From positions 48,227 to 112,226 of the forward strand of contig CAZEDG010000001.1 of NCBI GenBank assembly GCA_964510805.1: a stretch of 64,000 bases of DNA, read 5' to 3'. The position numbers and the translations under genes are program-made. This DNA is from an uncultured Candidatus Saccharibacteria bacterium (GTDB lineage Bacteria; Patescibacteriota; Minisyncoccia; Phycocordibacterales; UBA5272). A model generated the notes under the pieces. That model was not told the DNA's origin. It saw only the letters and a list, made by a program, of their open reading frames with translations, and made no database searches. How positions within the stretch are numbered: position 1 is the first letter of the stretch; each line of letters begins with the position of its first letter. Shown piece after piece: positions 11,657 to 30,062 of the stretch.

Positions 11657-11974
11657 ATGAACACAACATACAACGTAAAACACTTGCAGGAAAAAGGGGC
11701 ACATCTTATGCTTGCTTCTCTTGTTGTGTTGGCGCTTGTATATTGTGGAATTATTCTTTCGCTAGTGTTTTCTGTAATTGAACGTAAACAAAACACCATT
11801 GCATCTCGTGAACTTTCTTCAGAATTAAGTGCGCTTGAAGCAAAGTATGCAAATACTGTAGCGTCGATTTCTGATGCTGATCTTACTGCTCACGGATTTA
11901 AGCATGTAGATAACGCAACATTTGCTGTTCGCAAAGACGATATCGCAAGTTATACTGTGCTTTATGCACGCTAA
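11657..11974 (+). CDS. FtsL-like small bitopic division protein
   Basis: Single TM plus coiled coil; position between rsmH and ftsI. Confidence 0.4.
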   Translation: MNTTYNVKHLQEKGAHLMLASLVVLALVYCGIILSLVFSVIERKQNTIASRELSSELSALEAKYANTVASISDADLTAHGFKHVDNATFAVRKDDIASYTVLYAR

Positions 11975-13715: not shown

Positions 13716-13746
13716 CATTTCATTTTTTCTGATATAGTAAGGCAAT

Positions 13747-15201
13747 ATGCCCATCAATCCTTCACGTGTTCGCACGCTTTCATCATCTTCTTATAAAGAA
13801 GGTGTTGTGGTGTATCAGATGGGGAGAGATTTGCGTGCACATGATAACGATGCGCTACTTTTTGCGCAAGAGCTTGCACATAAAGGCAAAGCACAACTGA
13901 TTGTTACCTATGTGATCTGGAATTATATGTGGGAAGGTGCAACACGAAGGTTCTATGATTGGGTCATTCTTTCACTTCAGGAAATAGAAAAAACGTTGCG
14001 CGCGCATAACATCCCGCTTATGATTGTCTTTGAAGAAAAGAAACTTTTTGAAGACTCGAAGAGGATTCCTGTACCGCCTTCTGTTGGTGCGGTCGTGATT
14101 GATCAGATGCCTCTTCGCTACATGAGACGATGGAAGTCGTTATTCTTAGAAAATAATCCCCATGTTCCTCTTTATGAGGTTGATGCGCATAACTGTGTGC
14201 CGACCTGGGAGGCCTCTTCTAAGGAGGAATTTTCTGCAAGAACAATACGACCCAAGCTTCACAAGAAGCTTCCTGATTTTTTGGAAGAGTTTGACACGCT
14301 TCTTGTACACGAGTATGGTTCACTTGATACTTTTCCTCCTATTGATTGGAAAGAAGTCAAAGAAAAGATTGTGTGTAATGAAAAGATACACGGCGTTGGA
14401 GGCTTTTCTCCTGGTGAACAAGAAGCAAAGAAAATGCTCGAGTATTTTCTAGAACATAAATGTAAAGGATATGAACATGATCGTAATGATTTTACAAAAG
14501 ACGGACAGAGTAATCTCTCACCATATATTTCTCATGGTAATCTTTCACGAAGAAGAATTCTTCTTGAGCTTTGTAAAAAAGAAAAATGCACACCGGAAGA
14601 ACTTTTTTCACCGCGTGCTAATGGTTCAAATGGAGCTATGGGGTCAGTTGCATCATTTGTTGAAGAGTGTTTTGTAAGAGCTGAGCTTGCTGAAAATTTT
14701 TGTTATTATAATGAGAACTATGATAGGGTAGAAGGTTTTAAACCGTGGGCACAAGAGACTCTGCGTGCAAGAAGACAAGATACGCGCGCGTATTGCTATG
14801 CAAGAGAAGTATTTGAAGAAGCTCGTACCCATGACTTGCTGTGGAACTCCGCACAAAGAGAGCTTATTCTTACAGGTAAAATGCATGGTTATCTGCGCAT
14901 GTATTGGGCGAAGAAAATTCTCGAGTGGTCAAAGGATGAGCATGAAGCGCTTAGGGTTGCGAATTATCTTAATGACACTTACGAATTAGACGGGAGAGAT
15001 CCTAACGGGTATGTTGGCTGTGCTTGGAGTATAGGCGGAGTCCATGATAGACCGTGGTTCCCTAGGCCAATATTTGGCACTATCCGCTACATGGCAGAGA
15101 GTGGCGTAAAGAAAAGAGGGGATATACAGCTCTATTGTGATACATATCGTGATAGCGACATTGATAAGCAACAAAGCTTATTGTATACCATTCCCAATTA
15201 A
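13747..15201 (+). CDS. phr: class II CPD deoxyribodipyrimidine photolyase
   Basis: C-terminal FAD-binding region with YLRMYWAKKILEW, similar to class II photolyases. Confidence 0.7.
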   Translation: MPINPSRVRTLSSSSYKEGVVVYQMGRDLRAHDNDALLFAQELAHKGKAQLIVTYVIWNYMWEGATRRFYDWVILSLQEIEKTLRAHNIPLMIVFEEKKLFEDSKRIPVPPSVGAVVIDQMPLRYMRRWKSLFLENNPHVPLYEVDAHNCVPTWEASSKEEFSARTIRPKLHKKLPDFLEEFDTLLVHEYGSLDTFPPIDWKEVKEKIVCNEKIHGVGGFSPGEQEAKKMLEYFLEHKCKGYEHDRNDFTKDGQSNLSPYISHGNLSRRRILLELCKKEKCTPEELFSPRANGSNGAMGSVASFVEECFVRAELAENFCYYNENYDRVEGFKPWAQETLRARRQDTRAYCYAREVFEEARTHDLLWNSAQRELILTGKMHGYLRMYWAKKILEWSKDEHEALRVANYLNDTYELDGRDPNGYVGCAWSIGGVHDRPWFPRPIFGTIRYMAESGVKKRGDIQLYCDTYRDSDIDKQQSLLYTIPN

Positions 15202-15295
15202 CGGTATTAAAAGTGGTCCAAAAATCTACAAAAGGCAATGCTGTACTTTTTTATAAAATATGGTATAATTATTATCTCAGTACTCTCCATTACTT

Positions 15296-16570
15296 ATGAA
15301 AAATACATCTCCAAAAAAAACATTCTCAGGTTCCGCTAAAGGTCATACTCGCAAGAGCGCTAGTTCAAAGTATGGCAAAAGTTACACTACTTCAGAAAGA
15401 AAAGAACGGCCTGCACAGCGTCCTTATGTTCGTGATACTAAGTATGGCGCTAACGCTAAGTCTTCTTCATACCGTGGAAAAGATTTTCGTGAAGAACTAG
15501 AAAGAAAGAGAGACGAAGGGCCTGTCTATGCAAAAAAGTTTACACCACGAATTTATTCGTCGTCAGCATCATCTTCATCAAAGTCTGCGTATAAAAGTGA
15601 TAATCGTACCGCGTATAAAGAAAAGAACGAGCGCCTTTCTACTGCAGATCAATTCAGGTCACGAACACCTTCTCGTTTGATGAAGAAACCAGACTATAAG
15701 GATAAAGGTGTAAGTACAAAAAGATCAAAATTTACCCATGACTCAAAGAGTGTGGACAGTAAAACTTTGCATACTACTAATAACTCTCTACCTTCCAAAC
15801 ATGATACTTCTTGGGGAGGTGTTGCGACATGGTATGACGACCATCTTGAGAAGAGTAAGGATACATACCATGAGAAGGTGATCTACCCAGGCCTTCTCCG
15901 TATTCTTGGTGATGTAGAGAAGGTAACGCTTCTTGATCTTGCGTGCGGGCAAGGGCAGTTCTCTCGCAGGGTGGCAGAGAAAGGGGCTACAGTGACAGGT
16001 GTTGATCTTGGTAAAGAGCTCATCACTCTTGCAGAAGAAGCAAATGTAAGTCTTTCCAAAAAGGCAACAAAGGTTACGTATTATAACGGTAGCGCAGATG
16101 ATTTGTACATGCTTAAAGATAATTCTTTTGATGCTGTTGTCTGCGTGCTTGCACTTCAGAATATCGAACAGCTACAGAAGACTGTAGGAGAAGTATCTCG
16201 AGTCCTTAGAGATGGAGGAACATTTACTTTTGTACTCAATCACCCTTCTTTTAGAAATCCAAGAAACACAAGATGGTCATATGATGAGGATGAACATGTG
16301 CAGTATCGACGAGTTGATGAGTATATGAGAGAGTCGTCAGTTAAGATTGATATGACACCAGGAAATGCTAAGAATAAAAAATACACTGTTTCTTTCCATA
16401 GACCACTCCAAGTATATGTGAAGGCTCTTAGTAAATGTGGGCTCATGATTACCTCGCTTGAAGAGTGGGTAAGTCATAAAGAAAGCGAAGAAGGACCACG
16501 ACAACTTGCTGAGAACAGGTCAAGAAAAGAAATACCTCTCTTTATGTGTATTTCCACGAGGAAGGTATAA
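15296..16570 (+). CDS. class I SAM-dependent methyltransferase fused to a ~170-aa K/R/S-rich disordered N-terminus
   Basis: LLDLACGQGQFS (motif I), DAVVCVLAL, GGTFTFVLNHP; highly basic low-complexity N-terminus. Confidence 0.6.
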   Translation: MKNTSPKKTFSGSAKGHTRKSASSKYGKSYTTSERKERPAQRPYVRDTKYGANAKSSSYRGKDFREELERKRDEGPVYAKKFTPRIYSSSASSSSKSAYKSDNRTAYKEKNERLSTADQFRSRTPSRLMKKPDYKDKGVSTKRSKFTHDSKSVDSKTLHTTNNSLPSKHDTSWGGVATWYDDHLEKSKDTYHEKVIYPGLLRILGDVEKVTLLDLACGQGQFSRRVAEKGATVTGVDLGKELITLAEEANVSLSKKATKVTYYNGSADDLYMLKDNSFDAVVCVLALQNIEQLQKTVGEVSRVLRDGGTFTFVLNHPSFRNPRNTRWSYDEDEHVQYRRVDEYMRESSVKIDMTPGNAKNKKYTVSFHRPLQVYVKALSKCGLMITSLEEWVSHKESEEGPRQLAENRSRKEIPLFMCISTRKV

Positions 16571-16695
16571 AAAATTCCTTTTTGTAAGAGGTGAAAGAAC
16601 TTAAGTATTACATCCCTATTTTCTTTATTGTCAAGGATTTGAAAAAAATAACATGATTCCCTCTATGTCTATCTCATGGTATAATTTCAAGTACT

Positions 16696-17367
16696 ATGAA
16701 AAAAATGTCACAATTCTTTAGAACCCCACAAGGGAAGTTCTTGGGTGGTATTGCTATAATTATTATTGCATTGTTTGGGTATTATTTTGCTTCTGATGGA
16801 TCAAAGAGTGCTCCTGTAGATGTGCCAGTTGTGAGTGTTGAAGATCATCTTCGTGGCGCTAAGGATGCGCCTCTTACACTTGTTGAATTCGGTGACTTCC
16901 AGTGTCCTGCATGTGGTGCGTATGAGTCTATTGTGCGTCAAGTTCTTGCTGATAATACAGGAAAGGTAAAGATTGTCTTCAAACATTTTCCTCTTACTTC
17001 GATTCACCGTAATGCACTTCTTAGCGCTAAGGCATCAGAAGCTGCATCGCTTCAGGGTAAGTTCTGGGAAATGCATGACATGCTCTATGATAAGCAAAGT
17101 GAATGGGGAGAGTCTCTCATGGCTCGTGATCTTATTCTTAATTATGCAACAACACTTCGTCTTGATCTTACTAAGTTCAAAGCTGATCTTGAGAATAAAG
17201 CAATAGAAGAAAAGATTCTTGCACAGCTACGAGAAGGAACACGTCTTGGTGTACAAGGAACTCCTACTTTTTATTTAAATGGAGTCAAGCTTGATCCTAG
17301 TGATACTGCGGGTGTAGAAACCTTCAATAAGACAATTAAGTCCGCACTCGCTAAACCAATCGAGTAA
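16696..17367 (+). CDS. DsbA-family thiol:disulfide oxidoreductase, membrane-anchored
   Basis: CPAC active site, N-terminal TM, thioredoxin fold. Confidence 0.7.
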   Translation: MKKMSQFFRTPQGKFLGGIAIIIIALFGYYFASDGSKSAPVDVPVVSVEDHLRGAKDAPLTLVEFGDFQCPACGAYESIVRQVLADNTGKVKIVFKHFPLTSIHRNALLSAKASEAASLQGKFWEMHDMLYDKQSEWGESLMARDLILNYATTLRLDLTKFKADLENKAIEEKILAQLREGTRLGVQGTPTFYLNGVKLDPSDTAGVETFNKTIKSALAKPIE

Positions 17368-17372
17368 TACGT

Positions 17373-17606
17373 ATGATAAAAGAATTTCTCCTCAAACAGG
17401 CGGTAAAGCATGGTGCCAAAAATCTCCCAAAGGATCAAGCGGAGATGCTCCAGTCTGCTGTAGAAAAGAACCCAGAACTTTTTGAAAAGATTGCAAAGGA
17501 TATTGAAGCACTCAAAAAATCAGGCAAACCAGAGATGTATGCAGCGATCGATGTAATGAAAAAATATCAAAAAGAGTTACAAGAACTTTTTGCAAAACCT
17601 TCTTAA
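17373..17606 (+). CDS. small helical hypothetical protein
   Basis: ORF only. Confidence 0.25.
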   Translation: MIKEFLLKQAVKHGAKNLPKDQAEMLQSAVEKNPELFEKIAKDIEALKKSGKPEMYAAIDVMKKYQKELQELFAKPS

Positions 17607-17627
17607 GATAGATTTCGTCTTAATACA

Positions 17628-17660
17628 AAAAATGCACATTAATGTGCATTTTTTGTTTGC
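17628..17660 (+). terminator. rho-independent terminator
   Basis: atgcacatt/aatgtgcat palindrome followed by TTTTT. Confidence 0.55.
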
Positions 17661-17693
17661 TTGGAGTTATCCACACTTCGTTCTATTGAATTA

Positions 17694-17705
17694 GAACAAT
17701 CGTTC
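17694..17705 (+). promoter_or_regulatory. Cheo-type LexA (SOS) box GAAC-N4-GTTC
   Basis: GAACAATCGTTC 16 nt upstream of lexA; overlapping second half-site GTTCTATTGAATTAGAAC. Confidence 0.5.
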
Positions 17706-17720
17706 TAGTATGCTCAAGAT

Positions 17721-18284
17721 ATGAGAGACGAAGAAAAACTTACACATTTTTATAACGAACACAGACGCATGCCGTCGTACGAAGAGATGAAAGAGCTCTT
17801 CGATGTCGCTTCCAAGAATACCGTATCCTACCGAGTAAACAAGCTTATCGAAGAAGGGTTTCTGGTTAAGGAAGACGGCAAGCTCTTCTTAGCGGAGATT
17901 GGCACAGTGCTTCGATTGGGGACTGTACAAGCTGGATTTCCTACTCAAGCAGACGAAGATGTTGCGACAGAACTTCTCTCGCTTGATGACTTCCTGGTTG
18001 ATCGAAAAGGTTCAACATACATGCTCGAAGTTGTCGGAGAGTCTATGATAGAAGCAGGTATCTTAGAAGGGGATCTCGTTCTTGTAGAAAAAGGCAGAAC
18101 TGCAAGAAAGGGAGATATCGTGCTTGCCCTTGTCGATCATGAGTATACGCTTAAGTATCTCGATCAAGAAAAAGGTAAACCAGTACTTATTCCCGCCAAT
18201 AAAAAGTTCAAAAAAATCTACCCCAATCCAAACACACTCAAGATAGAAGCAGTACTCAAAGCAGTTATTAGAAAGTATCGTTAA
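17721..18284 (+). CDS. lexA: LexA repressor (S24 peptidase)
   Basis: AG cleavage site in VQAGFP; GESM catalytic Ser; Lys dyad region. Confidence 0.8.
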   Translation: MRDEEKLTHFYNEHRRMPSYEEMKELFDVASKNTVSYRVNKLIEEGFLVKEDGKLFLAEIGTVLRLGTVQAGFPTQADEDVATELLSLDDFLVDRKGSTYMLEVVGESMIEAGILEGDLVLVEKGRTARKGDIVLALVDHEYTLKYLDQEKGKPVLIPANKKFKKIYPNPNTLKIEAVLKAVIRKYR

Positions 18285-18495
18285 CAAGAGCTATCTCTCT
18301 AAAAACACTATGAAATTTTTTAACTACACTATTGAAGTCAAGCAAGCAGATCAAGTGATTAAACAAAGCGAACTCATCCATATCAGTAGAATTGGAGACT
18401 TCGCAAAAAGAATCGCCTAAAAAAGTATTAACCATCAACCGCTTCCTTGTATTTACCAATTACTAATAACGAATTACTAATAACCATTAACTAAC

Positions 18496-18939
18496 ATGTC
18501 CTCCCGCGCAATCATTCGCCTCACTCTTCTTAATAGAGAAACCTTCACCCTTAACTATAGTCGTCGTATGTACGCAATCATAAGGAGGTACACTCCTTCT
18601 GCTCAAGAAGGTGGTAAGAATGAGTGCTTTGCAGAGCTTACCGGTCTTAGAACATTTTTCAAGATGACGTACCAAGAAATTGCTAAGAAGATAGCAGGTG
18701 ATATTAAGCGAGAGATCGGCCATGAATGCACGCTAACGGTTACTTCTCCTACACGATACGATTCGCTACAAAGGAAAGACACCAAGAAAAGGAGTATTAG
18801 CACCTACTCAGAAATTAATACTCTTTTTGCTGGCAAAAAAGTATCTAGTATACAAAAGCGAGCACTTGCAGAAGTAACGACAGCACTTAAGAAGCGTCGG
18901 GTAAGGCTTACTGTTCCTTTTATCGGTAAGGTTAAGTAA
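18496..18939 (+). CDS. hypothetical basic protein; start uncertain
   Basis: ORF only; internal Met at 18568 and 18666 are alternative starts. Confidence 0.25.
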   Translation: MSSRAIIRLTLLNRETFTLNYSRRMYAIIRRYTPSAQEGGKNECFAELTGLRTFFKMTYQEIAKKIAGDIKREIGHECTLTVTSPTRYDSLQRKDTKKRSISTYSEINTLFAGKKVSSIQKRALAEVTTALKKRRVRLTVPFIGKVK

Positions 18940-19125: not shown

Positions 19126-19554
19126 TTACGCAACCGATTCGAAACAAGAAAGCTTGTGAAGCCTCTCCTTTACATTGAGAGCTATTCTTTCAGGGGTTTC
19201 CTCTTCCTTTGTATTAAGGAAGATAATTTGTTTTTCGGTTAATCCTAGGAAACTAAGTGGTTGTTTCATCAAGTCTTGTCTAACTTGTGGTGCTGTCGAT
19301 TTTTTTGAAGCTCTCGGTATCGATCCTCCAAATAGCCAAGACAATCTGCCGATCACAACAATGACATTGTTTGATTCCTGATGAGATATGACCAACTCCA
19401 GTGTTCCAAGGTTAGTGGAAGTATAGAGTATTTCTTCGACACCAAGATCACCTTTTTGTCTCTCAAGAGCAGAATATTTCGCTGTTCTCTGTGAGCGTGA
19501 TATGTCATCTGCACAGATGACAAGAGTAGGACGGTTCGTGTTGGGGTGACGCAT
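19126..19554 (-). CDS. hypothetical protein
   Basis: ORF only; Rossmann-like pattern LVICADD...VIVVIG. Confidence 0.3.
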   Translation of the reverse strand: MRHPNTNRPTLVICADDISRSQRTAKYSALERQKGDLGVEEILYTSTNLGTLELVISHQESNNVIVVIGRLSWLFGGSIPRASKKSTAPQVRQDLMKQPLSFLGLTEKQIIFLNTKEEETPERIALNVKERLHKLSCFESVA

Positions 19555-19744
19555 GGATAACCTCCTTATGGTTGGTAATTACATTGAAGAACAAAAGCAG
19601 TCTCCACTATATACGATAGAAGAAATTATTGCAAACAGAAGGTTGATGATTAGTGGTTTTATCTATGCTAGAATACTCGCACTAAGATACAATGACCGTC
19701 ATTGCGGACCCATTGCAATGACGGTCATTGTGTCTCATCTATCT

Positions 19745-20785
19745 ATGCTCAAGCAGTATCAGTACACAATACAAGAGAAGTCCATTCGGAAAGAACCGCT
19801 TAATGAGCGGGATACTTCGAGGATTTTTGTCTATGATACTGCGACTGATACGATCACTTTTGATTATTTTTACAACCTTGCGAAATATACTCCTGAGCAC
19901 ACCCTTCTTGTGCTTAATGACACAGGCGTGATTCCTGCACGTGTTACATTCAAAAAACAAACAGGGGGCAAAGTGAAAGGCCTCATTCTCCTAAACGAAG
20001 GACTTACAGAAGAAGGCGAGGTTGGAGCTATTGTTGATCGTAAGATTACTCCTGGTCAAGATCTGTATATTGATTCTCATCATTTCAAGGTGACAAGACA
20101 AGAAGAATCTAAGTTTTTTCTTAAGCCAATGTTTGCTGAGACTATAAGCGAAGTCCTCTTACATCACGGTACTACACCAACACCCCCATATCTTGGTAAG
20201 CAATCACTTGACGAAGAATCGCTTCGCACTAGGTATCAGACGATTTTTTCAAAAGAAAAGAAATCAGTCGCAGCGCCTACTGCGTCACTTCATTTTACTG
20301 AAAGAGTTTTTGCAAGATTAAAAGAAAAAGATGTTACAAGTGCATATATAACGCTTGATGTTGGTCTTGGGACTTTTGCAGAAGTAAAAGAAGAGCAAGT
20401 GCAGTCAAGAACGCTTCATAAAGAGCATGTCTTCATCTCAAGTGAAACTTGTAAGCAAATACAAGAACAAAAAAAGAATCGGAGGCCTGTGCTTGCAGTT
20501 GGAACAACTGCAGTAAGAACGCTTGAGTCACAAAAAGATCATATTCTTCAAGGTGTTGGATCGTATCAAGGTGATACATCGTTGTTCATTCTTCCTCCTT
20601 ATGATTTTAAAATTGTCGATCATATGATTACTAATTTTCATGTACCAGGATCAAGTCTTATGGCGCTTGTTGATGCTTTTCTTTTGCACAAAAAAGCAAA
20701 AAGAAGAATTCTCGAGCTTTACGAAGTCGCACAACAAGAAGGATTCACTTTCTACTCCTTTGGTGATTCGATGGTGATTATCTAA
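19745..20785 (+). CDS. queA: S-adenosylmethionine:tRNA ribosyltransferase-isomerase QueA
   Basis: Full-length similarity to QueA. The longer ORF from 19553 overlaps a divergent gene start, so Met at 19745 is preferred. Confidence 0.8.
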   Translation: MLKQYQYTIQEKSIRKEPLNERDTSRIFVYDTATDTITFDYFYNLAKYTPEHTLLVLNDTGVIPARVTFKKQTGGKVKGLILLNEGLTEEGEVGAIVDRKITPGQDLYIDSHHFKVTRQEESKFFLKPMFAETISEVLLHHGTTPTPPYLGKQSLDEESLRTRYQTIFSKEKKSVAAPTASLHFTERVFARLKEKDVTSAYITLDVGLGTFAEVKEEQVQSRTLHKEHVFISSETCKQIQEQKKNRRPVLAVGTTAVRTLESQKDHILQGVGSYQGDTSLFILPPYDFKIVDHMITNFHVPGSSLMALVDAFLLHKKAKRRILELYEVAQQEGFTFYSFGDSMVII

Positions 20786-20880
20786 ATATTTTACCCGAAC
20801 CGTAAGTATGGACATAAACATAATTATATGTTATATTATACCCCCTACACATGGTGTGTAGTTTTTTGCGGAGTAAAACC

Positions 20881-21123
20881 ATGAGCGCAAGTTCTAACGA
20901 TCAAGGCAAGACGGTAGATGTAACGCTTCGTCTTTCTGTGGAATTACATCAAAGGTTGCTTGCTTTGCAAGCAACGGTGCAATCAAAAGATCTCGGAGAA
21001 GTTTCTCAAAATGCTTATCGCCTTTACGAGGCAATGGTTAACGAAGCAGAAGCAGGGGCTGAATTTTTTATCAAACGAAAAGGAGATGATGCTCCTGTTC
21101 CGCATGAAGTTTTTCAGAAATAA
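20881..21123 (+). CDS. small ribbon-helix-helix-like protein (orphan antitoxin/regulator-like)
   Basis: TVDVTLRLSVELHQRLLALQA beta-strand/helix pattern; GGAG 7 nt upstream. Confidence 0.3.
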   Translation: MSASSNDQGKTVDVTLRLSVELHQRLLALQATVQSKDLGEVSQNAYRLYEAMVNEAEAGAEFFIKRKGDDAPVPHEVFQK

Positions 21124-21261
21124 TCGAGGTATGAGCACGGGAAAGGCATTAACATCTCTCCCGTGTTTTATTTTTTTATACTCAAATTACTTTTTATGGT
21201 ATGATGTCTCGTACCTGTATCTCTATCTATTAACCATTAACTATAAACTATTAACCACAGT

Positions 21262-22383
21262 ATGTCTCTCTCCATCGGAATTGTCGGTCTACCAAACGTT
21301 GGTAAATCAACACTTTTTAACGCCATCACTAAGAAGTCTGTCCCTGCGGATAACTATCCTTTTTGTACTATTGACCCATCAGTTGGTCTTGTTGCTGTGC
21401 CTGATGAACGACTTGAAGTGCTTTCTCGAATGAGCGGATCGAAGAAACTTATCCCTGCAGTTGTTGAGTTCGTAGATATCGCAGGTCTTGTAAAAGGTGC
21501 AAGTGAAGGGCAAGGGCTTGGTAATCAGTTCCTCTCTCATATTCGCGAGACAGATGCTATCGCACAAGTGGTGCGTATCTACGAGAATGGTGACCTTATC
21601 CATGTGGAAGGTACTGTTGATCCTGTACGCGATATCGAAATCATTAACATGGAACTTATTCTTGCGGATCTCCAGACTACAGAAAAAAGACTACAGACAA
21701 TAGAAAAAGATGTTAAACGTGGAGATAAAGATGCTCTTAAGTTTAAAGAACTTTTACTTACAATAAAAACAACACTTGAAGGTGAGAAGCTTGCTCATAG
21801 TATTTCTTTTGATGAAGAAGAGAAGAAGATTGTGCGCGAGCTTCACCTCATCACCATGAAGCCTTTTCTTTATGTGCTTAATAAGCAGTCAGGCGGTAAG
21901 AATCTTGATGAGATGAACTCTAATCCTACGGGCGGGGAACCTGATGATCGTTTCAAGAAGTTGCTTACTTATTTTAGAGATAATCATGCCAAGTATGTGA
22001 TTGTTGACGCGAAGATAGAAGATGAGCTTAAGGAATTTGAAGGAGAAGAAAAAGAGATGATGCGTCATGAGCTCGGTGCGCATGATAATGGTGTGGATGG
22101 TCTTATTAGTGCTGGCTATCAACTTCTTGGTCTTGAAACATACTTAACAACAGGGGAGATGGAGACAAGAGCATGGACTATCAAGAAGGGGTCTTCTGCG
22201 CCAAAGGCGGCATCTGCGATACATAGTGATTTTGAGCAGAAGTTCATTCGAGCAGAAGTTGTTGCGTATACAGATCTTGTGAGTGCGGGGAGTTTTGCAG
22301 AAGCAAAGTCACGAGGACTTCTTCGTACCGAGGGTAAGGAGTATATTGTGAAGGATGGTGATGTGATTGAGTTTAAAATTTGA
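21262..22383 (+). CDS. ychF: ribosome-binding ATPase YchF (Obg-family GTPase)
   Basis: GIVGLPNVGKST; TGS domain at the C-terminus. Confidence 0.9.
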   Translation: MSLSIGIVGLPNVGKSTLFNAITKKSVPADNYPFCTIDPSVGLVAVPDERLEVLSRMSGSKKLIPAVVEFVDIAGLVKGASEGQGLGNQFLSHIRETDAIAQVVRIYENGDLIHVEGTVDPVRDIEIINMELILADLQTTEKRLQTIEKDVKRGDKDALKFKELLLTIKTTLEGEKLAHSISFDEEEKKIVRELHLITMKPFLYVLNKQSGGKNLDEMNSNPTGGEPDDRFKKLLTYFRDNHAKYVIVDAKIEDELKEFEGEEKEMMRHELGAHDNGVDGLISAGYQLLGLETYLTTGEMETRAWTIKKGSSAPKAASAIHSDFEQKFIRAEVVAYTDLVSAGSFAEAKSRGLLRTEGKEYIVKDGDVIEFKI

Positions 22384-22480
22384 TTTGAAGGTCTTGATGT
22401 AAGTGTGCTACACTCTATGGTGGCTGGTCCTCGTATATGAAAAGAAGAGGATTAGCGTAAGGAAGCGCAGTGAAAGCCTC

Positions 22481-22530
22481 AAGCAGGTACCAGACCTCTC
22501 GGTCGGTGCCTGCTTTTTTCTTTTGTTTTG
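22481..22530 (+). terminator. rho-independent terminator after ychF
   Basis: 11-bp stem aagcaggtacc/ggtgcctgctt (one G-U pair) followed by TTTTTTCTTTTG. Confidence 0.5.
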
Positions 22531-22683
22531 TGTGAGTGTTTTATAAGTAACTGTGGATAACTCTTGAGGAAAATTTGCGTAAAGATGTATAGACATGCTA
22601 GTATTTCTGTTAGACGTTCTTTTGCAAGCGATTGCAGTTTTTCGTAAGCGATTGACGTCTGCGGTAGACAACAGGAGTAAAGC

Positions 22684-22797
22684 ATGAACAACTTCGGCCA
22701 CTCCATGATCGGCAACGCCGGCTACATCGACACCGGCCAAAGTGGCTTCGCCACCACGACCGACATCAACGCGACGATCAACGGCGCCAACAACTGA
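22684..22797 (+). CDS. GC-rich 37-aa ORF with strong C3 codon bias (MNNFGHSMIGNAGYIDTGQSGFATTTDINATINGANN)
   Basis: AGGAG SD 8 nt upstream, its own terminator at 22865-22900, about 60% GC against about 38% surroundings. Confidence 0.3.
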   Translation: MNNFGHSMIGNAGYIDTGQSGFATTTDINATINGANN

Positions 22798-22864
22798 AGG
22801 GCGAACATGCCCATCAAGATCTTGTTCCTTAGAACCATAAGCTGTGTATCAGCCTAAGGAACTC

Positions 22865-22900
22865 AACCCACCCCTCAAAAGGTGGGTTCGACTTTTTATA
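22865..22900 (+). terminator. rho-independent terminator
   Basis: acccaccc-ctcaaaa-gggtgggt followed by a T-run. Confidence 0.55.
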
Positions 22901-22973
22901 TAGACCTTACATAAGGAGTGTGAAATAAAATCCGTGCTAGGATGGTAGTAAGGAATAAGCCTCATATTGTCAT

Positions 22974-23537
22974 ATGCAATCACTCTCTATAGCACATACT
23001 GACGAAGCCTTGGTAGAAGAAATATACCAAGGTGACAAGGAGCTCTTCGGGGAGCTTATTGATAGGTATGAGGCAAAACTTACAAGATACGTAAGAAGGT
23101 TCACACAAGAAAAAGATGATATCGACGATATTGTACAAACCATTTTTGTAAAAGCGTATACCCATCTTAACAGTTTCGATACTTCTCGTTCATTTAATAG
23201 TTGGATTTATCGTATTGCTCATAATGAGAGTGTGACGTATCTTAAGAGAAAAGGGGAAGAGAAGGTTTCTTTTATTGACTTTGATACCTTCTTCCCTCAT
23301 CCTTTTGCAAAAGAAGAATCAGATGCCCTTGCACTCTCCAATGAGCAGAAGAAACTTCTCGAAAGTTCACTAAGTAAACTTCCTCCTAAGTATCGCGAAG
23401 TGCTTGTACTTTATTTCTTCGAAGAGATGTCGTACGAAGAGATACGTGAAGTGCTCCATATACCTACCTCAACGGTAGGAGTTCGTTTAAGAAGAGCGAA
23501 GCAAGCGCTCGAGGCATTATTACAACAATACGTATGA
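22974..23537 (+). CDS. ECF-family RNA polymerase sigma factor (sigma-24 type)
   Basis: Sigma-70 region 2 and region 4 (SYEEIREVLHIPTSTVGVRLRRA) patterns. Confidence 0.8.
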   Translation: MQSLSIAHTDEALVEEIYQGDKELFGELIDRYEAKLTRYVRRFTQEKDDIDDIVQTIFVKAYTHLNSFDTSRSFNSWIYRIAHNESVTYLKRKGEEKVSFIDFDTFFPHPFAKEESDALALSNEQKKLLESSLSKLPPKYREVLVLYFFEEMSYEEIREVLHIPTSTVGVRLRRAKQALEALLQQYV

Positions 23538-24292
23538 AAAAACAAATTTCTCATCTCAAAGAAACTATTTTACATAAGGTAACTCATGATTCTATCTCTA
23601 TGATACCGAGATGGAAGTTCGTGATGTACTCACTTTTGTTTATTTTTGCTGGCCTCTTTGTAGCTGGGGTTGTTATTTTTTGTCTTAGTCTCTTTTTGTT
23701 CGTGCTTTCTTCTCATGGAATGCTCCATCTTTCTTTCTTTGATTTTGTTGCGATGCTTATGACGATCAAAGTACTTCCAGCTCTTCTTCTTATATTCACA
23801 TTGATTCTTGTTGGTGTGCTCCACATGATTGCAAGAAGATACACCGTAGCTTTCAGATGGCCTCTCCTTAGTGTATTTCTCCTCATTTCTATGGTGGCTG
23901 TTGCGCTTAGTTATTTTGTGAGTGAGACACCTCTTCATACTCATGTTAGAAATTTTGCACGAGGTCATCATGTGGGGATGATGGAGCATATGTATGACAG
24001 ACCTCATGATATTCTGCCAGGAAGACCTGATGTAATTCGCGGAGAAGTGCTGAGTGTGGCAAGTTCTTCTTTTCGAATAAGGGCTTTTGATGGAAAAGAA
24101 TTTCTTGTAAATGCTTCTCGTACGGAAGAGTATTCACCTTCTTTGCTTTCCCAACTGCAAGCAGGTGATGATGTAACAGTATTTGGCTCGTTTACACAAG
24201 ATGGAGATACTTTTGATATGCTTCTACTACGTGCTCATACTGTACAGTCATCAATGATGATGCGACAAGAATTTGCTCCTCCTGTGAAATAA
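23534..24292 (+). CDS. putative membrane anti-sigma factor
   Basis: Translationally coupled to the sigma factor (ATGA overlap); four TM helices. Confidence 0.4.
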   Translation: MKKQISHLKETILHKVTHDSISMIPRWKFVMYSLLFIFAGLFVAGVVIFCLSLFLFVLSSHGMLHLSFFDFVAMLMTIKVLPALLLIFTLILVGVLHMIARRYTVAFRWPLLSVFLLISMVAVALSYFVSETPLHTHVRNFARGHHVGMMEHMYDRPHDILPGRPDVIRGEVLSVASSSFRIRAFDGKEFLVNASRTEEYSPSLLSQLQAGDDVTVFGSFTQDGDTFDMLLLRAHTVQSSMMMRQEFAPPVK

Positions 24293-24480
24293 AAGAAGTG
24301 TCAAAAGGTATTAGTAAGTGTAGGAAGGAATTGCTCCTATGCGCAGAGTTGCATACTCTTCCTGCTTAGTTTTTGTAAAAGTTGTAGTATCTCTATATCG
24401 GTACAACAGACACAGAGTTTTTTCCTTGGAGATTTACGACACAAAGACTTATTTATTCTTAACACTGAACTTATATATTT

Positions 24481-24942
24481 ATGAAAAAATCATTACAAAA
24501 AATTGGCATGGTAAGTGCACTATCACTCGCATCTTTTTCTGTACTTTCTGCTTCTGCTATGGGAATGCCTTACATGATGAACAATGCTACACCTGATGAA
24601 ATCGCAACAAGGCAGACACAGATGTTCACGAGTCAGGCTTCACTTATTGGTGCGACTGTGGATGAAGTAAAGAATGCTTGGGCAAGTGGGAAGGATTTTA
24701 AAACGCTTGCACAAGAAAAAGGAATCACAGAAGAACAGCTTCGTACAAAAATGGAAACCAAGAGAACCGACGAGATGAAAACCACACTCGCAACTCTTGT
24801 AAGTAAAGGAGTTATTACTCAGGCGCAAGCAGATAAGAGGCTTGCAACCATGAGTGCAAAGGCAAGTAACGAAAAAGGCGCAGGCAAGCGCGGAAGGGGA
24901 CATATGTCCGGCTTCACAGGAATGATGGGAGGAGGGTTCTAG
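24481..24942 (+). CDS. secreted helical hypothetical protein
   Basis: Signal peptide; K/E-rich helical repeats. Confidence 0.35.
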   Translation: MKKSLQKIGMVSALSLASFSVLSASAMGMPYMMNNATPDEIATRQTQMFTSQASLIGATVDEVKNAWASGKDFKTLAQEKGITEEQLRTKMETKRTDEMKTTLATLVSKGVITQAQADKRLATMSAKASNEKGAGKRGRGHMSGFTGMMGGGF

Positions 24943-24988
24943 TTATTGCTTGTGTAAAAAATTCTACACATATTGATCTATCTTTTAC

Positions 24989-25030
24989 AAAACCATCACA
25001 CACAGAAGTGTGATGGTTTTGTTTTTTTTG
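24989..25030 (+). terminator. rho-independent terminator
   Basis: aaaaccatcacac...gtgtgatggtttt followed by a T-run. Confidence 0.6.
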
Positions 25031-25132
25031 CAAAAAAAGAGGAGATGGTGTACTATCGATGAGTATCTTTGTCGAAGTATGGCTAAACCAGAACTATTTG
25101 TTTTGGTCGCTCTATAGTAAGGAGAAAGAATC

Positions 25133-25522
25133 GTGATTGATCAAGGCATTCGTATTTATCTTCAAGATGTTTCGCTTTCAGTCAAAGAAGAAGTCGTTAG
25201 TTCTGCAAAAAGAGCAATTCAAGGCGTAGAAAACGCGGTGAGAGCTTCTCAGGAGTCTGATGAACTATATTTTTCTTTCGAAGAGATTCGTATTAACTCT
25301 TACCCTCTTGATAAAAGGGAAGTTAATACTGTTGAAGTTAGTGTCTCTTTTCATTCTTCGCTTTCTTCTGACAGGAAGAGTTCAAAAACTGTTGCCTATG
25401 TTTACAGAAGAAACAGGGCTTGTACGGAAACTTCTATGGCGAAGCAAGTTTTTGACGCAACAGCACAACTTGCTCTTGCTCTTGCAGATGAAGTTCTTTT
25501 GAAGGATCTGAAGGCTATATAG
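25133..25522 (+). CDS. hypothetical protein
   Basis: ORF only. Confidence 0.3.
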   Translation: MIDQGIRIYLQDVSLSVKEEVVSSAKRAIQGVENAVRASQESDELYFSFEEIRINSYPLDKREVNTVEVSVSFHSSLSSDRKSSKTVAYVYRRNRACTETSMAKQVFDATAQLALALADEVLLKDLKAI

Positions 25523-25624
25523 AACAAAATACAAAGAAGCGCCACCGGGTAATCCGTGAGCGCTTTTGTTTTATTTCTCCAAAATCTGTATAATGAGAGG
25601 TATACTATCTTAATCTTTTTTTGT

Positions 25625-27544
25625 ATGACTGTTAATGAAATTAGACATAAGTTTCTTCGCTATATGGAGAGCAAGGGGCATGTAGTTGTTCCTTCTGCTT
25701 CCCTTGTTCCGGAGAATGATCCAACGACACTCTTCACAGGAAGTGGCATGCAACCGATGCTTCCGTATCTACTAGGGCAACCTCATCCACTTGGCACTCG
25801 TATTGCTGATTCTCAGAAGTCTTTTCGTTCACAAGATATTGAGGAGGTGGGTGATAATCGTCATACAACATTCTTCGAGATGCTCGGTAATTGGTCTTTT
25901 GGTGATTATTTTAAAGAAGAAGAGATTAGATGGATGTTTCATTTTCTTACGGAAGAATTGAAGCTTAACCCTGAGAATCTTTATATTACTTGTTTTTCGG
26001 GGAATGATGCGCTTAATGTGCCAAGAGATACTTTTTCGGCTGAGTTGTGGCAGAGGCTTTTTTCTGCAAAAGATATTGACGCGCTCATAAGTGATACACC
26101 AGAACTTGGAATGAAGTCAGGTGAGAGAATCTTTTATTATGGAGAGAAGAAAAATTGGTGGAGTAGATCAGGTGTGCCACAGAATATGCCAGAAGGAGAG
26201 CCTGGTGGTCCTGATTCTGAGATGTTCTATGATTTTGATCCTGATGCAAAGAAAGGAATGCATGCGAGCTCTCAGTGGGCACATGAGCCATGTCATGTGA
26301 ACTGTGACTGCGGAAGATTCCTTGAGGTTGGTAACAATGTCTTTATGCAGTACAAGAAAGCTGAAGGAGGTTTTAAAGAGCTTCCTCAAATGAATGTTGA
26401 TCATGGTTCTGGTCTTGAGCGCTACGTGTCTGCGGTTCGTAATGATCCGGATATTTTTAATATTGATGTTTTTGATATTCCAAAAGAAGTGATTAAACGT
26501 CTCTCAAATCATCCATACGAAGAGAGTGCACAGGTTATGTACGCGTATCGCGTAATTCTTGATCATATTAGGTCAGCCACATTTCTTATTGGGGATGGTG
26601 TTATGCCTGGCAATAAAGATCAGATGTACTTCGTACGTCGTCTGGTAAGACGCGCAGTTCGGTTTGCGCGCAATCTTGGAATTGAAGTTAATTTTACTCG
26701 AGAAATTGCTAAGGCTTTTATTTCTGTGTACAAGGATGCGTATAGCAATCTTGGAGAAGGAGAAGAACAGATTCTTTCTGCTCTTGATAAGGAGGAATCC
26801 AAGTTCCGTGTGACCCTAGAAAAGGGTATGAGAGAGTTCGAGAAGATTGCAAAGGATCATATCTCCGGTAAGGACGCCTTTGACCTCCTTCAGTCATATG
26901 GTTTTCCTATTGAGCTTACAGAAGAACTTGCATACGAACGAGGGCTTCAGGTAGATAGGGTTGGTTTTGAAGAAGAAAAGAAAAAGCACGCAGAGGAGTC
27001 TCGTACTGCGTCTTCTGGTAAGTTCAAAGGTGGCCTTGGAGGGGACGGTGATATGGAAGTGAAGTATCATACTGCGACACATCTCCTTCACGAAGCGCTT
27101 CGTCAGGTGCTCGGTGAATCAGTTGCTCAGAAGGGGTCGAATATTACACCCGAGCGACTTCGTTTTGATTTTTCTTTTGATCGTAAGATGACAGATGAAG
27201 AGAAGAAGCAGGTAGAGGATATTGTTAATAGTCGTATTCGTGATGCGCTTCCTGTTACTCGCGAAGAGGTGAGTATTGATGAGGCAAGAGCTCTTGGAGC
27301 AATCGGATTATTTGGAGATAAGTATGGTGATACAGTAAGTGTGTATCGCGTAGGGTCAGGTAAGAGACGAGGAGAGGGAAGTCTTTTCTCGATTGAGTTC
27401 TGTGGTGGGCCTCATGTAGAGAACACGCGAGAGCTTGCCGTGTCACTCCTTCCTAACGGAACGATGCTTGAAGATGTCTTTAAGATCGCAAAAGAAGAAG
27501 CAGTATCTCAAGGTGTAAGAAGAATCAAGGCGGTGCTTCAATAG
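25625..27544 (+). CDS. alaS: alanyl-tRNA synthetase, short form lacking the C-Ala domain
   Basis: N-terminal catalytic similarity (FFEMLGNWSFGDYFK); editing HxxxH (HTATHLLHEAL) and CGGPH. Confidence 0.85.
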   Translation: MTVNEIRHKFLRYMESKGHVVVPSASLVPENDPTTLFTGSGMQPMLPYLLGQPHPLGTRIADSQKSFRSQDIEEVGDNRHTTFFEMLGNWSFGDYFKEEEIRWMFHFLTEELKLNPENLYITCFSGNDALNVPRDTFSAELWQRLFSAKDIDALISDTPELGMKSGERIFYYGEKKNWWSRSGVPQNMPEGEPGGPDSEMFYDFDPDAKKGMHASSQWAHEPCHVNCDCGRFLEVGNNVFMQYKKAEGGFKELPQMNVDHGSGLERYVSAVRNDPDIFNIDVFDIPKEVIKRLSNHPYEESAQVMYAYRVILDHIRSATFLIGDGVMPGNKDQMYFVRRLVRRAVRFARNLGIEVNFTREIAKAFISVYKDAYSNLGEGEEQILSALDKEESKFRVTLEKGMREFEKIAKDHISGKDAFDLLQSYGFPIELTEELAYERGLQVDRVGFEEEKKKHAEESRTASSGKFKGGLGGDGDMEVKYHTATHLLHEALRQVLGESVAQKGSNITPERLRFDFSFDRKMTDEEKKQVEDIVNSRIRDALPVTREEVSIDEARALGAIGLFGDKYGDTVSVYRVGSGKRRGEGSLFSIEFCGGPHVENTRELAVSLLPNGTMLEDVFKIAKEEAVSQGVRRIKAVLQ

Positions 27545-27590
27545 ATAGATGAGATAGATGGTAGATTTTAGACGTTAGATATTAGAAAAG
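27541..27590 (+). repeat. seven tandem TAGNNNN heptads (TTAG-type stop repeat)
   Basis: atagata gatgaga tagatgg tagattt tagacgt tagatat tagaaaa, immediately after the alaS stop. Confidence 0.7.
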
Positions 27591-27594
27591 AAAA

Positions 27595-27623
27595 AAGGCG
27601 CGACCGCAGGTCGCGCCTTTTTT
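27595..27623 (+). terminator. bidirectional rho-independent terminator
   Basis: aggcgcgacc-gca-ggtcgcgcct, A-run upstream and T-run downstream. Confidence 0.7.
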
Positions 27624-27628
27624 GAAAC

Positions 27629-28186
27629 TCAGTCACCCCATGTAAGGTAAAACTTCGGCTTGTTGTGTTCAGGACATGCGTTGTTTGTACAACCGAAGAC
27701 ACCGAATTGGGTATAGTGAACGGCTGTAGTTCTCATATTTTGCATGTAGTAATCTTCTCGAGCTTTGTTTTCTTTTTCCCACGCTTTTCTCATTAGCGTT
27801 GGACAGTCTTCTCGTTCCTTACCTGGGAAATGCCAGAGAGTGAGAGGGTTATTACACCAAAGACAAAGTGCTGGAGTTTTTTCAACAGTTTCTTCTCTGA
27901 AGCACTTTTTACAGATTCTGCTGATATCAAAGACGCCGGTGGCGTATTTCCTATTACCGTCGCGGTCTCGGTAGAAGAGTTGTGTCCATGCGTGGTCACA
28001 ATCTGCTCTCATAGCTTCAACGGTTTCTTCTAGTCCCTGTATCTGTTCAAGGTGCTCCTGTATCTTTTTGAATGTATTTCGTATGTTTCGATCTGTTGGT
28101 CTCTTTGATGGCTTAGAAAGAGCGTAGCCACGGAAACTTACATACCTTGAATAGCGTTGTCTTCGGTTAGACATTCGGTTAGACAT
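27629..28186 (-). CDS. Cys-rich zinc-ribbon protein with basic N-terminus, unknown function
   Basis: CKKC-x11-CLWC ribbon plus CDH and C-x4-C-x2-H; N-terminus MSNRMSNRRQRYSRY. Confidence 0.4.
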   Translation of the reverse strand: MSNRMSNRRQRYSRYVSFRGYALSKPSKRPTDRNIRNTFKKIQEHLEQIQGLEETVEAMRADCDHAWTQLFYRDRDGNRKYATGVFDISRICKKCFREETVEKTPALCLWCNNPLTLWHFPGKEREDCPTLMRKAWEKENKAREDYYMQNMRTTAVHYTQFGVFGCTNNACPEHNKPKFYLTWGD

Positions 28187-28297
28187 GGTGTATCCTTTCC
28201 GTATTTACACATCGGCTATTGATCCACTGCAATACTATCACAATTAGGTTTATTTTCCACTACCAACTATCACTACTTAGTTATATACTCAAAGTAT

Positions 28298-28693
28298 ATG
28301 GACCGACCATCTGCTTCTTTTCTTTCTATCGCTGTAAGTGATACATCAACGCTTGTTAATTATGTCGTTGATGGGCATGTGCTTGTTTCTCATGTGCATC
28401 CTGTTGGGTATAAGCATATAGAAGCAGAGGGGATGGGGGTGATCGCTTCTTCTAAACTCGTCGACGGAGTGCTTTATGTGCTTGAGTTTATTTCTCTATA
28501 CGATCGTATTCCTACAGATTTTAGATTAGTGGCATCTCGATATGCTCCGTGGGTCGGTGAAGTAATAGAAAAAGCATCTTATTCACAGTTCTTCACAAAC
28601 GGTGCTCCAATAAGTGTTACACTAGAAGGTGTAAAAGACGTTCCTCTCTCATATGCAAGACATTCGCAAACCATACACTCGTTCAAGGTCTAA
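28298..28693 (+). CDS. hypothetical protein
   Basis: ORF only. Confidence 0.3.
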   Translation: MDRPSASFLSIAVSDTSTLVNYVVDGHVLVSHVHPVGYKHIEAEGMGVIASSKLVDGVLYVLEFISLYDRIPTDFRLVASRYAPWVGEVIEKASYSQFFTNGAPISVTLEGVKDVPLSYARHSQTIHSFKV

Positions 28694-30062
28694 CGATGAT
28701 CTTCATTCTCGTATAGAACGCTTCGACTTATCACACAAAAATCGTGATGAGTATGATGATTCGTACGAAGATGATCCTGTACGTATCCCTGTTAAGCGAC
28801 AGCGTCGTGATATTCATGGTATGGATATGTATCCAAGCAGACGTATGGATAAAGATGAAGAGCTTTACGAGGACGAAGGGCTATATGACGACAGAAGATC
28901 TTCACATGGACGCGTTCCTTCTCGAAGAAGAAGGATTTCTCTTGGAACGGCAGGTTCTCTTCTTGGGGTTATTTTGTTTGTTGCTGGTATTGTGCTATAT
29001 ACCTATGTTTTTGATAGTGCGACTATCACACTTACACCTAAGTATAAAGATATTCAAGATGTTGGAAAAACATTTGTTTTCTCAAAAGAAGGCGTCGACG
29101 CGTCAGGGATTCCTTTTGTTGTAGAAACAACCTCTCTTTCAAAAACAAAAACCTTACCACTCTCCGAATCTCGAAAAGTCGAGTCCAAGGCTACAGGAAA
29201 GGCAATCATTTATAATAATTATGATGGAAATACTCAGAAGTTAATTAAAAATACCCGTTTCGAGTCGTCTAAAGGTAAGATTTATCGTATTAATCAGTCT
29301 ATCGAAGTTCCAGGCAAGAAAGGGGATACTCCCGGCAGTGTTGAGGTTACGTTATATGCAGATAGTGCTGGCGCTGAGTACAATATTGACTCGACGACAT
29401 TTAGTATCCCTGGATTCAAAGGAACTTCACGCGAGAGTGCTTTTTATGCTAAGACTAAGTCGGCTATTTCTGGAGGTTCTTCAGGCACCATGTCACTTCC
29501 TTCTATTTCTGATCTTAATTCTGCAAAAGATTCTCTTGCGCTTGAACTTAAGCAAAGCATCCAAGATGATCTTCATAAGATCAAAAAAGACGGCTACATT
29601 CCTCTCTATTCTTCTGCTGAGATCGCTTATTCAGATAATGAAGAAGATATACGTAAAGGGGTTACTGATAGCTATAAAGTAACAGCTACTGCATACGTCA
29701 TGTTGGCAGATGCTTCAAAGCTCGCAGAGGCGCTTGCAAAAACATTTGGTGATTATGATGGAGGTGCTGTGCGACTTCTTTCTTCAGATGGCCTCTCTTT
29801 TACAAGAAAACAAACTGATGCAATTAATGGAGCAAACACCATTTCTCTTTTAGTTGACGGTAAAGCGAGAGTTGTCTGGGTAACTGATAGCGACGCAGTA
29901 AAAAGTCTTGTGCAGGGCAAAGAAAGGGATATGTTTAAAGGACTTATGAAGACAGTAAGCTCTGTCGATAGTGCCGAAATAAGCTTCTCACCAATGTGGC
30001 TTACACACTTCCCAGATACACGTTCTAAGCTAACCGTGACAGAATCTCTTCCAAAGCGTTGA
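28653..30062 (+). CDS. bitopic membrane protein: highly charged disordered N-terminus, one TM, large extracytoplasmic domain
   Basis: Overlaps the upstream ORF by 40 nt, so the start may be an internal Met. Confidence 0.4.
   Translation: MQDIRKPYTRSRSNDDLHSRIERFDLSHKNRDEYDDSYEDDPVRIPVKRQRRDIHGMDMYPSRRMDKDEELYEDEGLYDDRRSSHGRVPSRRRRISLGTAGSLLGVILFVAGIVLYTYVFDSATITLTPKYKDIQDVGKTFVFSKEGVDASGIPFVVETTSLSKTKTLPLSESRKVESKATGKAIIYNNYDGNTQKLIKNTRFESSKGKIYRINQSIEVPGKKGDTPGSVEVTLYADSAGAEYNIDSTTFSIPGFKGTSRESAFYAKTKSAISGGSSGTMSLPSISDLNSAKDSLALELKQSIQDDLHKIKKDGYIPLYSSAEIAYSDNEEDIRKGVTDSYKVTATAYVMLADASKLAEALAKTFGDYDGGAVRLLSSDGLSFTRKQTDAINGANTISLLVDGKARVVWVTDSDAVKSLVQGKERDMFKGLMKTVSSVDSAEISFSPMWLTHFPDTRSKLTVTESLPKR

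Follow-up and report, generated by a model that had tools for sequence, protein, structure and literature searches.

Gene order and base composition between ychF and an ECF sigma gene

The DNA analysed here is a stretch of 64 kb (64,000 nt, called the window below) from an uncultured Candidatus Saccharibacteria bacterium. By our analysis, the genome is of the Paceibacteria/Nomurabacteria type within the Patescibacteria. Our subject is a small open reading frame (ORF) of 37 codons, together with the signals that frame it, in the gap between ychF and a gene for a sigma factor of the extracytoplasmic function (ECF) type. The gene order is queA (19553-20785, about 1.9 kb upstream of the small unit), an ORF of 90 amino acids (aa), ychF (21262-22383), the gap of 590 nt and the sigma gene (22974-23537), followed by an overlapping gene for a 252-aa membrane protein, a gene for a secreted-looking protein of 153 aa (p153), a 129-aa ORF and alaS. 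The names ychF and alaS come from precomputed Pfam hits and from tblastn. An earlier note, made from the sequence alone, had described the genes after the ORF as an ECF sigma/anti-sigma pair; the sigma gene is recognized by its Pfam domains (Sigma70_r2 and r4_2), and the membrane protein, which has no Pfam family, is presumed to be the anti-sigma factor. Contigs of three separate Joint Genome Institute (JGI) samples agree over the whole 590-nt gap with 100% identity, so the ORF is not a product of chimeric assembly or another artefact.

The ORF lies on the plus strand at 22684-22797, encodes the peptide MNNFGHSMIGNAGYIDTGQSGFATTTDINATINGANN and ends in TGA, as had been described. JGI gene calling annotates it as a hypothetical protein. 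Its GC content is 0.588 (58.8%) in a window of GC 0.398. At third codon positions it has 30 C, 5 G, 1 A and 1 T, so that 35 of its 37 codons have G or C there and the GC content at these positions (GC3) is 0.95. For the 63 long ORFs of the window, our host reference, GC3 is 0.31 +/- 0.086, and the maximum over the 15,862 windows of 37 codons within them is 0.62. The synonymous-usage score of the ORF falls 5.4 standard deviations (sd) below that of the host genes and is the worst host fit in the window. Neither its GC3 nor its share of third-position C is matched by any other ORF of at least 25 codons in about 1 Mb, comprising the window and related loci. The 100 nt with the highest GC content of the 64 kb also lie here (22711-22810; 0.62, about 4 sd; 9% T). 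The core codons (GGC, GCC, ACC, AAC, ATC, GAC, TTC, TAC and CAC) are typical of high-GC coding sequence, and 11 of the 37 codons are of the form NAC. The description of the ORF as GC-rich with foreign codon usage therefore stands. We also considered a tie to the other T-poor, GC-rich spot of the window, at 24821-24920, and rejected it: that spot is the purine-rich 3' end of p153 and lacks the periodicity of codons ending in C (NNC).

A periodicity scan showed that the pattern of G or C at every third base is not confined to the ORF. The tract runs over 52 codons of the ORF frame (22672-22827, plus strand), 47 of which end in G or C. Its first 4 codons precede the ATG and its last 10 follow the TGA without a change of frame; all ten of the latter end in G or C, for which the chance is about 1e-4 at 40% GC by our own estimate. 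The tract of unusual composition thus extends beyond the ORF, and its run past the TGA suggests a truncated piece of a longer foreign coding sequence. Both antisense frames of the tract are also open, one rich in Val, Gly, Ala and Asp and the other a hydrophobic 38-aa ORF, because the sense frame has a purine-any-pyrimidine (RNY) periodicity. All three open frames are codon-usage outliers for the host; only the sense frame shows the high-GC type of pattern, with GC3 far above GC at the first and second positions, plus start signals.

The hydrophobic antisense ORF (22838-22722, minus strand, MVLRNKILMGMFALQLLAPLIVALMSVVVAKPLWPVSM) raises the question of whether the minus strand carries the function, either as a structured RNA (a long G-U-rich hairpin at 22700-22790) or as a type I toxin with the plus-strand transcript as its antitoxin. 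The encoded product resembles a single-pass membrane peptide, and the minus strand of the ORF body folds at -46 kcal/mol versus -39.9 +/- 3.5 for codon shuffles (z -1.7, p 0.057). Yet this folding excess is marginal, and the hydrophobicity would be expected automatically, because an RNY sense strand opens an antisense frame with T or C at the second codon position. Moreover, we found no minus-strand promoter or terminator, the limits of the antisense ORF (22722-22838) differ from those of the compositional tract, and it has no family match. The type I toxin-antitoxin system was rejected on the two grounds that the antisense ORF lacks minus-strand signals and that it follows from the sense periodicity; for the minus-strand explanation as a whole the odds are long.

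The distribution of adenines brings in a further candidate. Diversity-generating retroelements (DGRs) are common in this phylum. In such elements the adenines of a template repeat (TR) are mutagenised during transfer to a variable repeat (VR) (PMC3240598), and the tract resembles such repeats in being about 115-150 nt long, A-rich and T-poor, with 31 of the 32 adenines of the ORF at codon positions 1-2 and with 7 AAC codons. Adenines at positions 1-2 of AAY codons are, however, expected of any high-GC3 coding sequence. Six-frame translation of the 64 kb gave no ORF above 200 aa with the YxDD motif of a reverse transcriptase, the best adenine-tolerant ungapped match to a partner repeat in the whole window scored 0.47, no larger target gene ends in the tract, and the copies of the gap from different samples show no variation. 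Without reverse transcriptase, partner repeat or variability, a template or variable repeat within the window was rejected. That the tract is a DGR remnant, or a remote part of a DGR, is largely refuted by the same evidence within the window and hardly credible.

Signals around the ORF and the structured 3' region

Upstream of the ORF, we read a candidate promoter on the plus strand (22575-22604) with a weak -35 element TTGCGT (22575-22580), an 18-nt spacer and an extended -10 box TGCTAGTAT (22596-22604). It was not reported by the consensus scan and its -35 element matches at only 3 of 6 positions. The 9-mer TGCTAGTAT is also found 12 nt upstream of the gene starting at 41391. As read from the sequence, the extended -10 box with its weak -35 element would be the likeliest promoter of the ORF, and the transcript is predicted to start near 22611. 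In several other genes of the window, extended -10 boxes (TGnTAnnWT) end only 1-30 nt before the start codon, suggesting that leaderless or very-short-leader mRNAs are widespread in this genome.

The 5' leader (22620-22657, plus strand) contains two direct repeats, gcaagcgattgcag (22624-22637) and gtaagcgattgacg (22644-22657), which share the exact 9-mer AAGCGATTG 20 nt apart. These are its only two exact copies in the window, and the pair by itself is only weakly significant; the repeats that had been noted upstream of the ORF are thus real. Each repeat could fold into a short hairpin whose loop is GCGA, while the fold stability of the leader as a whole is unremarkable (z -0.62). A Shine-Dalgarno (SD) sequence AGGAG (22673-22677, plus strand) lies 6 nt before the ATG. 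Such sites are scarce in the window, with 52 of the 63 long ORFs lacking an SD-like core and 3 of the 63 having AGGAG(G) within 20 nt upstream, which bears out the claim that a canonical SD is rare in this host.

Downstream, a structured 3' region (22795-22862, plus strand) comprises hairpin A (22795-22816), which spans the stop codon, and hairpin B (22824-22862), with a 9-bp outer stem GTTCCTTAG/CTAAGGAAC. The same strand then carries an intrinsic terminator (22863-22897), made up of a bulged stem of 10 bp (22863-22891), a C and a run of five T (22893-22897); the ORF does have a terminator of its own, as had been proposed. The 106 nt after the stop codon, which hold the two hairpins and the terminator, fold with a z of -5.5, and none of 200 shuffles folded as well. 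A second possible mini-ORF in the same frame, speculatively read from ATG to TAA (22807-22857, plus strand, 16 aa, MPIKILFLRTISCVSA), has AGGG upstream and ends 5 nt short of the terminator stem. On a speculative reading, either this second ORF or readthrough of the TGA would bring ribosomes to within 5 nt of that stem.

Several observations concern the remainder of the gap. Directly 3' of ychF, the segment 22384-22540 has a stable structure (z -4.0) and ends in a terminator hairpin with a T-run (22481-22521, plus strand), which marks the left boundary of the context outside the unit. A candidate promoter TTGAAG-N18-TACACT (extended -10 TGCTACACT) overlaps the ychF stop, and the segment has no Rfam match; it may be more than the ychF terminator, namely an independent small RNA of about 100 nt. 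A perfect DnaA-box 9-mer TTATCCACA lies at 22552-22560 on the minus strand, intergenic and upstream of the unit; a replication origin at the gap was rejected, with this single box and no box cluster nearby. The heptamer TAAGGAA occurs four times in 500 nt (22458, 22825 on the minus strand, 22855 and 22949) versus about 0.2 expected locally, and 25 times in the whole window versus 13.5 expected. Two of the four copies build hairpin B and one sits in the sigma promoter region.

The stable 3' domain and the stand-alone arrangement with a terminator led us to weigh the possibility that the plus-strand transcript of about 290 nt acts as a small regulatory RNA (sRNA), perhaps of dual function, with the ORF incidental or secondary. 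A 261-nt region gives z -4.0 against dinucleotide shuffles, sRNA genes with similar extended -10 boxes occupy the same slot and strand in relatives, and the 18 nt at 22821-22838 show 83% complementarity with 22942-22959, a short distance ahead of the sigma gene. Nevertheless, the GC-rich body folds on the plus strand as codon-shuffled sequence does (-25.2 kcal/mol versus -25.0 +/- 3.0, z -0.05). The codon-order shuffle keeps the three-base periodicity. An unusual fold of the GC-rich body was therefore rejected: the high z from dinucleotide shuffling stems from the 3' hairpins, and both codon-order and position-wise shuffles left the plus strand ordinary. The Rfam match that, according to the earlier note, would have pointed to a structured RNA did not appear. 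Rfam 15 gave no match in the whole window at gathering thresholds, and with permissive filters over 22300-23000 it gave only RAGATH-28 (18.3 versus 45.3 bits) and ASpks (15.6 versus 52), at E values of 0.9-3.8, which is chance level; none even at E<10 is a match. ARAGORN found no tRNA or transfer-messenger RNA gene. In addition, a three-base periodicity in register with an SD-led ATG is characteristic of coding sequence, the sRNA of the relatives is not detectably homologous, and the complementary target would lie mostly upstream of the likely transcription start of the sigma gene. We consider a small regulatory RNA, of dual function or not, unlikely.

A variable slot in related genomes and an independent sigma operon

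The order ychF-[gap]-sigma-antisigma-p153-alaS is kept in about 14 related genomes, whose gaps measure 121 to 2433 nt, with contents that are unrelated. Some are empty (L168, L032, L012 and L013, our labels for related loci), some hold membrane-protein genes (L011 and L040), and others hold small RNA-like units: one in L166 and, in eight genomes, an sRNA of about 70 nt that is conserved among them. We found no DNA or peptide similarity to the ORF and its surroundings in the gaps of these roughly 14 syntenic genomes, and tblastn of the peptide against 165 related loci returned chance matches only. The element thus occupies a slot of variable content and is specific to its lineage. The relatives are not close: YchF of the window shares at most 82% identity with those of 80 related metagenome-assembled genomes, and the nearest sigma factor is 73% identical, as judged from 5.8 billion proteins and from searches of genomes and metagenomes with these two proteins.

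The occupants of the slot in the relatives deserve description in their own right. The conserved sRNA gene, in the ychF-sigma or ychF-alaS slot, has a near-perfect promoter TTGACA-N17-TGCTATAAT and a hairpin UCCAAC...CAGUUGCC...GUUGGUU with invariant loop bases, then an intrinsic terminator, and it has no Rfam match. Its eight copies are at 1790-1860 in L013, 5633-5720 in L017, 5725-5826 in L019, 6013-6088 in L027, 5599-5671 in L029, 5591-5697 in L033, 6524-6606 in L037 and 5374-5445 in L028. We asked whether the unit of the window is a diverged or interrupted version of this sRNA and rejected the idea; a weak likeness was seen in a MAFFT alignment, but a covariance model and an nhmmer profile found nothing in the window. 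The unit in L166 (2141-2465), sRNA-like and of about 290 nt, has a perfect TTGACA-N17-TATAAT promoter, a terminator and a long-range closing helix GGACGGAGGUG ... CUCCACCUCCGUCC; no Rfam family reaches its gathering score there, and a single chance match appears at E<1. Other GC-rich tracts occur in AT-rich relatives (L010 5245-5590, with 0.62 GC over 60 nt; L055 1405-1683, with a GC3-rich frame of 92 codons in a 35% GC genome; L018 5247-5342). They are unrelated in sequence to the element and may be structured RNAs or other inserts.

What follows the gap is, by contrast with its contents, conserved. All syntenic relatives have a two-block motif (TTGAAATAAA, about 15 nt, GTAsTA) just upstream of the sigma gene (seen in L012, L013, L028, L032, L086, L166 and L168). 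In the window, it reads TGAAATAAA-N15-GTAGTA (22921-22950, plus strand) and forms the right boundary of the context outside the unit. The pattern GAAATAAA-N12-18-TASTA has three matches in the window versus 0.05 expected: 22922-22950, 24286-24316 upstream of p153, and 5552-5576 on the minus strand, the last of which probably just overlaps a plus-strand -10 box. This would make the motif a candidate autoregulatory ECF promoter, with p153 as the other member of a candidate mini-regulon. Because the conserved motif sits downstream of the terminator at 22863-22897, the sigma operon has a candidate promoter of its own, which is probably autoregulated. No copy of the motif was found upstream of the ORF. 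The suggestion that the ECF sigma factor drives the ORF was accordingly dropped. Judged from these motifs, the unit appears neither to depend on the sigma operon nor to gate it, since the promoter motif of the latter is conserved, lies beyond the terminator and is absent upstream of the ORF.

These observations bear directly on the possibility that the unit is a cis-acting leader or attenuator of the sigma operon, in which transcripts end at 22863-22897 unless translating ribosomes reach the terminator. The arrangement is suggestive: promoter, small ORF and terminator lie on one strand ahead of the sigma ATG at 22974, 77 nt past the T-run, with the terminator between the putative leader ORF and the gene to be regulated. 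The ORFs are rich in NNC codons that are rare in the host, and the frame of the second ORF, or of readthrough, stops at 22855-22857 beside the terminator stem. NAC codons are read by queuosine-modified tRNAs, and the 11 NAC codons of the ORF together with queA about 1.9 kb upstream make a circumstantial link to queuosine. However, neither the minimum free energy (MFE) nor the centroid folds contained an antiterminator pairing, and inspection by eye showed no GGUGGG-type sequence that could pair with the 5' arm of the stem. Past the terminator, the sigma gene is preceded by a promoter-like motif of its own, which relatives share. The relatives also keep the same operon without such a leader, some of them with gaps of only 121-252 nt. 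An attenuator is thus improbable. More remote still is the notion of a translation-speed sensor, in which an SD-led leader of host-rare NNC codons would let ribosome transit or TGA readthrough set readthrough into the ECF sigma/anti-sigma operon; the alternative that the ORF founds a new small-protein family is, with it, something we would bet heavily against. If a speed sensor were real, it would couple envelope-stress signalling to the tRNA modification or charging status of a symbiont with a reduced genome.

Probable origin of the putative insert and comparison with known systems

We interpret the element as a lineage-specific insert of foreign composition in the variable ychF-sigma slot that now forms a stand-alone small-ORF unit, and we give this interpretation a probability of roughly 0.4. 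A short segment with a high-GC coding signature would have been inserted between ychF and the ECF sigma operon, and the unit would now read, in order, the extended -10 box (about 22596-22604), a leader of about 70 nt, AGGAG, the 37-codon ORF, two 3' hairpins and the terminator at 22863-22897. The core of about 155 nt (22672-22827) would have retained its high-GC codon signature with no drift to host usage, so the insertion would be recent or under selection. We infer the foreign origin, the use of the promoter, and the transcription and translation of the ORF from atypical composition, from the surrounding signals and from absence in relatives that keep both flanks. Of the two possibilities in the earlier note, a horizontally acquired or a regulatory small gene, the first fits the foreign composition and the absence from relatives, although no donor was found, and the second is left without a link to the sigma factor.

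A number of results weigh against this interpretation. The peptide returned only itself from a word-indexed set of 5.8 billion proteins and from a full HMMER pass over 1.84 billion representatives, so that no homologue was found in either set; a 57-aa readthrough query fared no better against the 5.8 billion proteins, and the peptide matched nothing in Pfam, NCBIfam or PHROGs. Searches for a donor in plasmids, phages and two pattern scans of viral contigs gave chance matches to high-GC organisms or none. Flanking inverted or direct repeats that might mark the ends of a mobile element were at chance level, with no mobility signature. An AlphaFold2 model of the peptide was uninformative and of low confidence (predicted local distance difference test, pLDDT, 59; predicted template modelling score, pTM, 0.20). 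Because the nearest sigma factor is only 73% identical, neither the ratio of nonsynonymous to synonymous substitution rates (dN/dS) nor covariation is measurable. The unit is also a mosaic: its GC-richness is confined to the core of about 155 nt, and promoter, leader, hairpin B and terminator are host-like in composition. Finally, the GC3 periodicity past the TGA may mean that the present ORF is a truncated relic and not a selected gene.

This last point leads to the explanation that we regard as possible, if doubtful, namely a non-functional relic: a recently integrated fragment of foreign high-GC coding sequence, acquired for example via DNA uptake, in which 37 codons are open by chance. Its SD, promoter and terminator would then owe their position to coincidence or have been there beforehand. 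The tract exceeds the ORF at both ends, by 4 codons before the ATG and 10 past the TGA, as expected of a truncated longer gene. A peptide without homologues, the worst host fit in the window and a slot that gathers unrelated insertions in relatives are consistent with a relic as well. On the other hand, AGGAG at optimal spacing is improbable by chance where SD sequences are rare, and a strong terminator and a plausible extended -10 box frame the tract on the same strand. An unselected tract with 95% GC3 would also be expected to decay under the AT bias of the host.

The two interpretations differ in what they would mean. If expressed, the insert would show that a Patescibacteria genome took in a tiny fragment of foreign coding DNA and equipped it for expression, with an SD sequence where most genes have none, and it would bear on gene gain in ultra-small symbionts capable of DNA uptake. 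As a relic, it would mark the slot between ychF and a conserved ECF sigma operon as an insertion hot spot.

The nature of the peptide was a separate question, as the earlier note had likened it to small precursors of the microcin type or of ribosomally synthesised and post-translationally modified peptides (RiPPs). If expressed, the 37-aa peptide would be polar, rich in Asn, Gly and Thr, probably disordered, and without signal peptide or partner enzymes. It was already remarked that no modification enzyme is adjacent, and Pfam extends this to about 10 kb, within which no maturation enzyme (MccB/ThiF-like, YcaO, LanM/LanBC, radical SAM and similar) was found; no exporter or immunity gene of the ABC or C39 type lies near the ORF, and no precursor family matches. 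The ORFs in 10741-18939, queA and those in 20851-30062 gave the Pfam assignments RsmH, PBP, photolyase, methyltransferase, DsbA-like, S24 peptidase, an IMS fragment, QueA and sigma, and seven ORFs in the same stretches had no family. One feature among these neighbours stands apart from our subject: at 17721-18939, a 147-aa ORF with only a partial match to the Y-family polymerase (IMS) domain comes after the gene for a LexA-like S24 peptidase and may be a truncated dinB-like gene. With no maturation enzyme, exporter or precursor family found and no homologue of the peptide, the likeness to a RiPP or microcin precursor was not upheld.

Among the known systems that the element resembles, RiPP and microcin precursors share with it a short Cys-free, Gly/Asn/Thr-rich peptide from a stand-alone small gene. 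McC-type peptides end in Asn, and this one ends in Asn-Asn; unlike them, it has no adenylating, cyclodehydratase, lanthionine or radical-SAM enzyme, peptidase or exporter within about 10 kb and belongs to no precursor family. Leader-peptide transcription attenuators, of which the 44-codon pyrBI leader of E. coli is an example, likewise place a short ORF and then an intrinsic terminator upstream of a regulated-looking operon on the same strand, with an in-frame reading that ends beside the terminator stem. Here, by contrast, no antiterminator was found in the MFE and centroid folds, the operon has its own conserved promoter-like motif past the terminator, and the leader is not conserved with the operon. 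DGR repeats (PMC3240598) are of similar length, AAC-rich and have adenines restricted to codon positions 1-2, whereas this locus lacks a reverse transcriptase, a partner repeat, a target-gene scaffold and variability. The closest likeness is to ORFan genes and short acquired islets, with which the element shares atypical composition and codon usage, absence from relatives that keep the flanks, the lack of homologues and a compact unit with its own signals. It differs from them in its tiny core of about 155 nt, in having no integrase, tRNA or attachment (att) site, flanking repeats or detectable donor, and in its host-like flanks. Occurring in a single lineage and without comparators, the element is best classed with phenomena already known: orphan mini-genes or acquired fragments restricted to one lineage.

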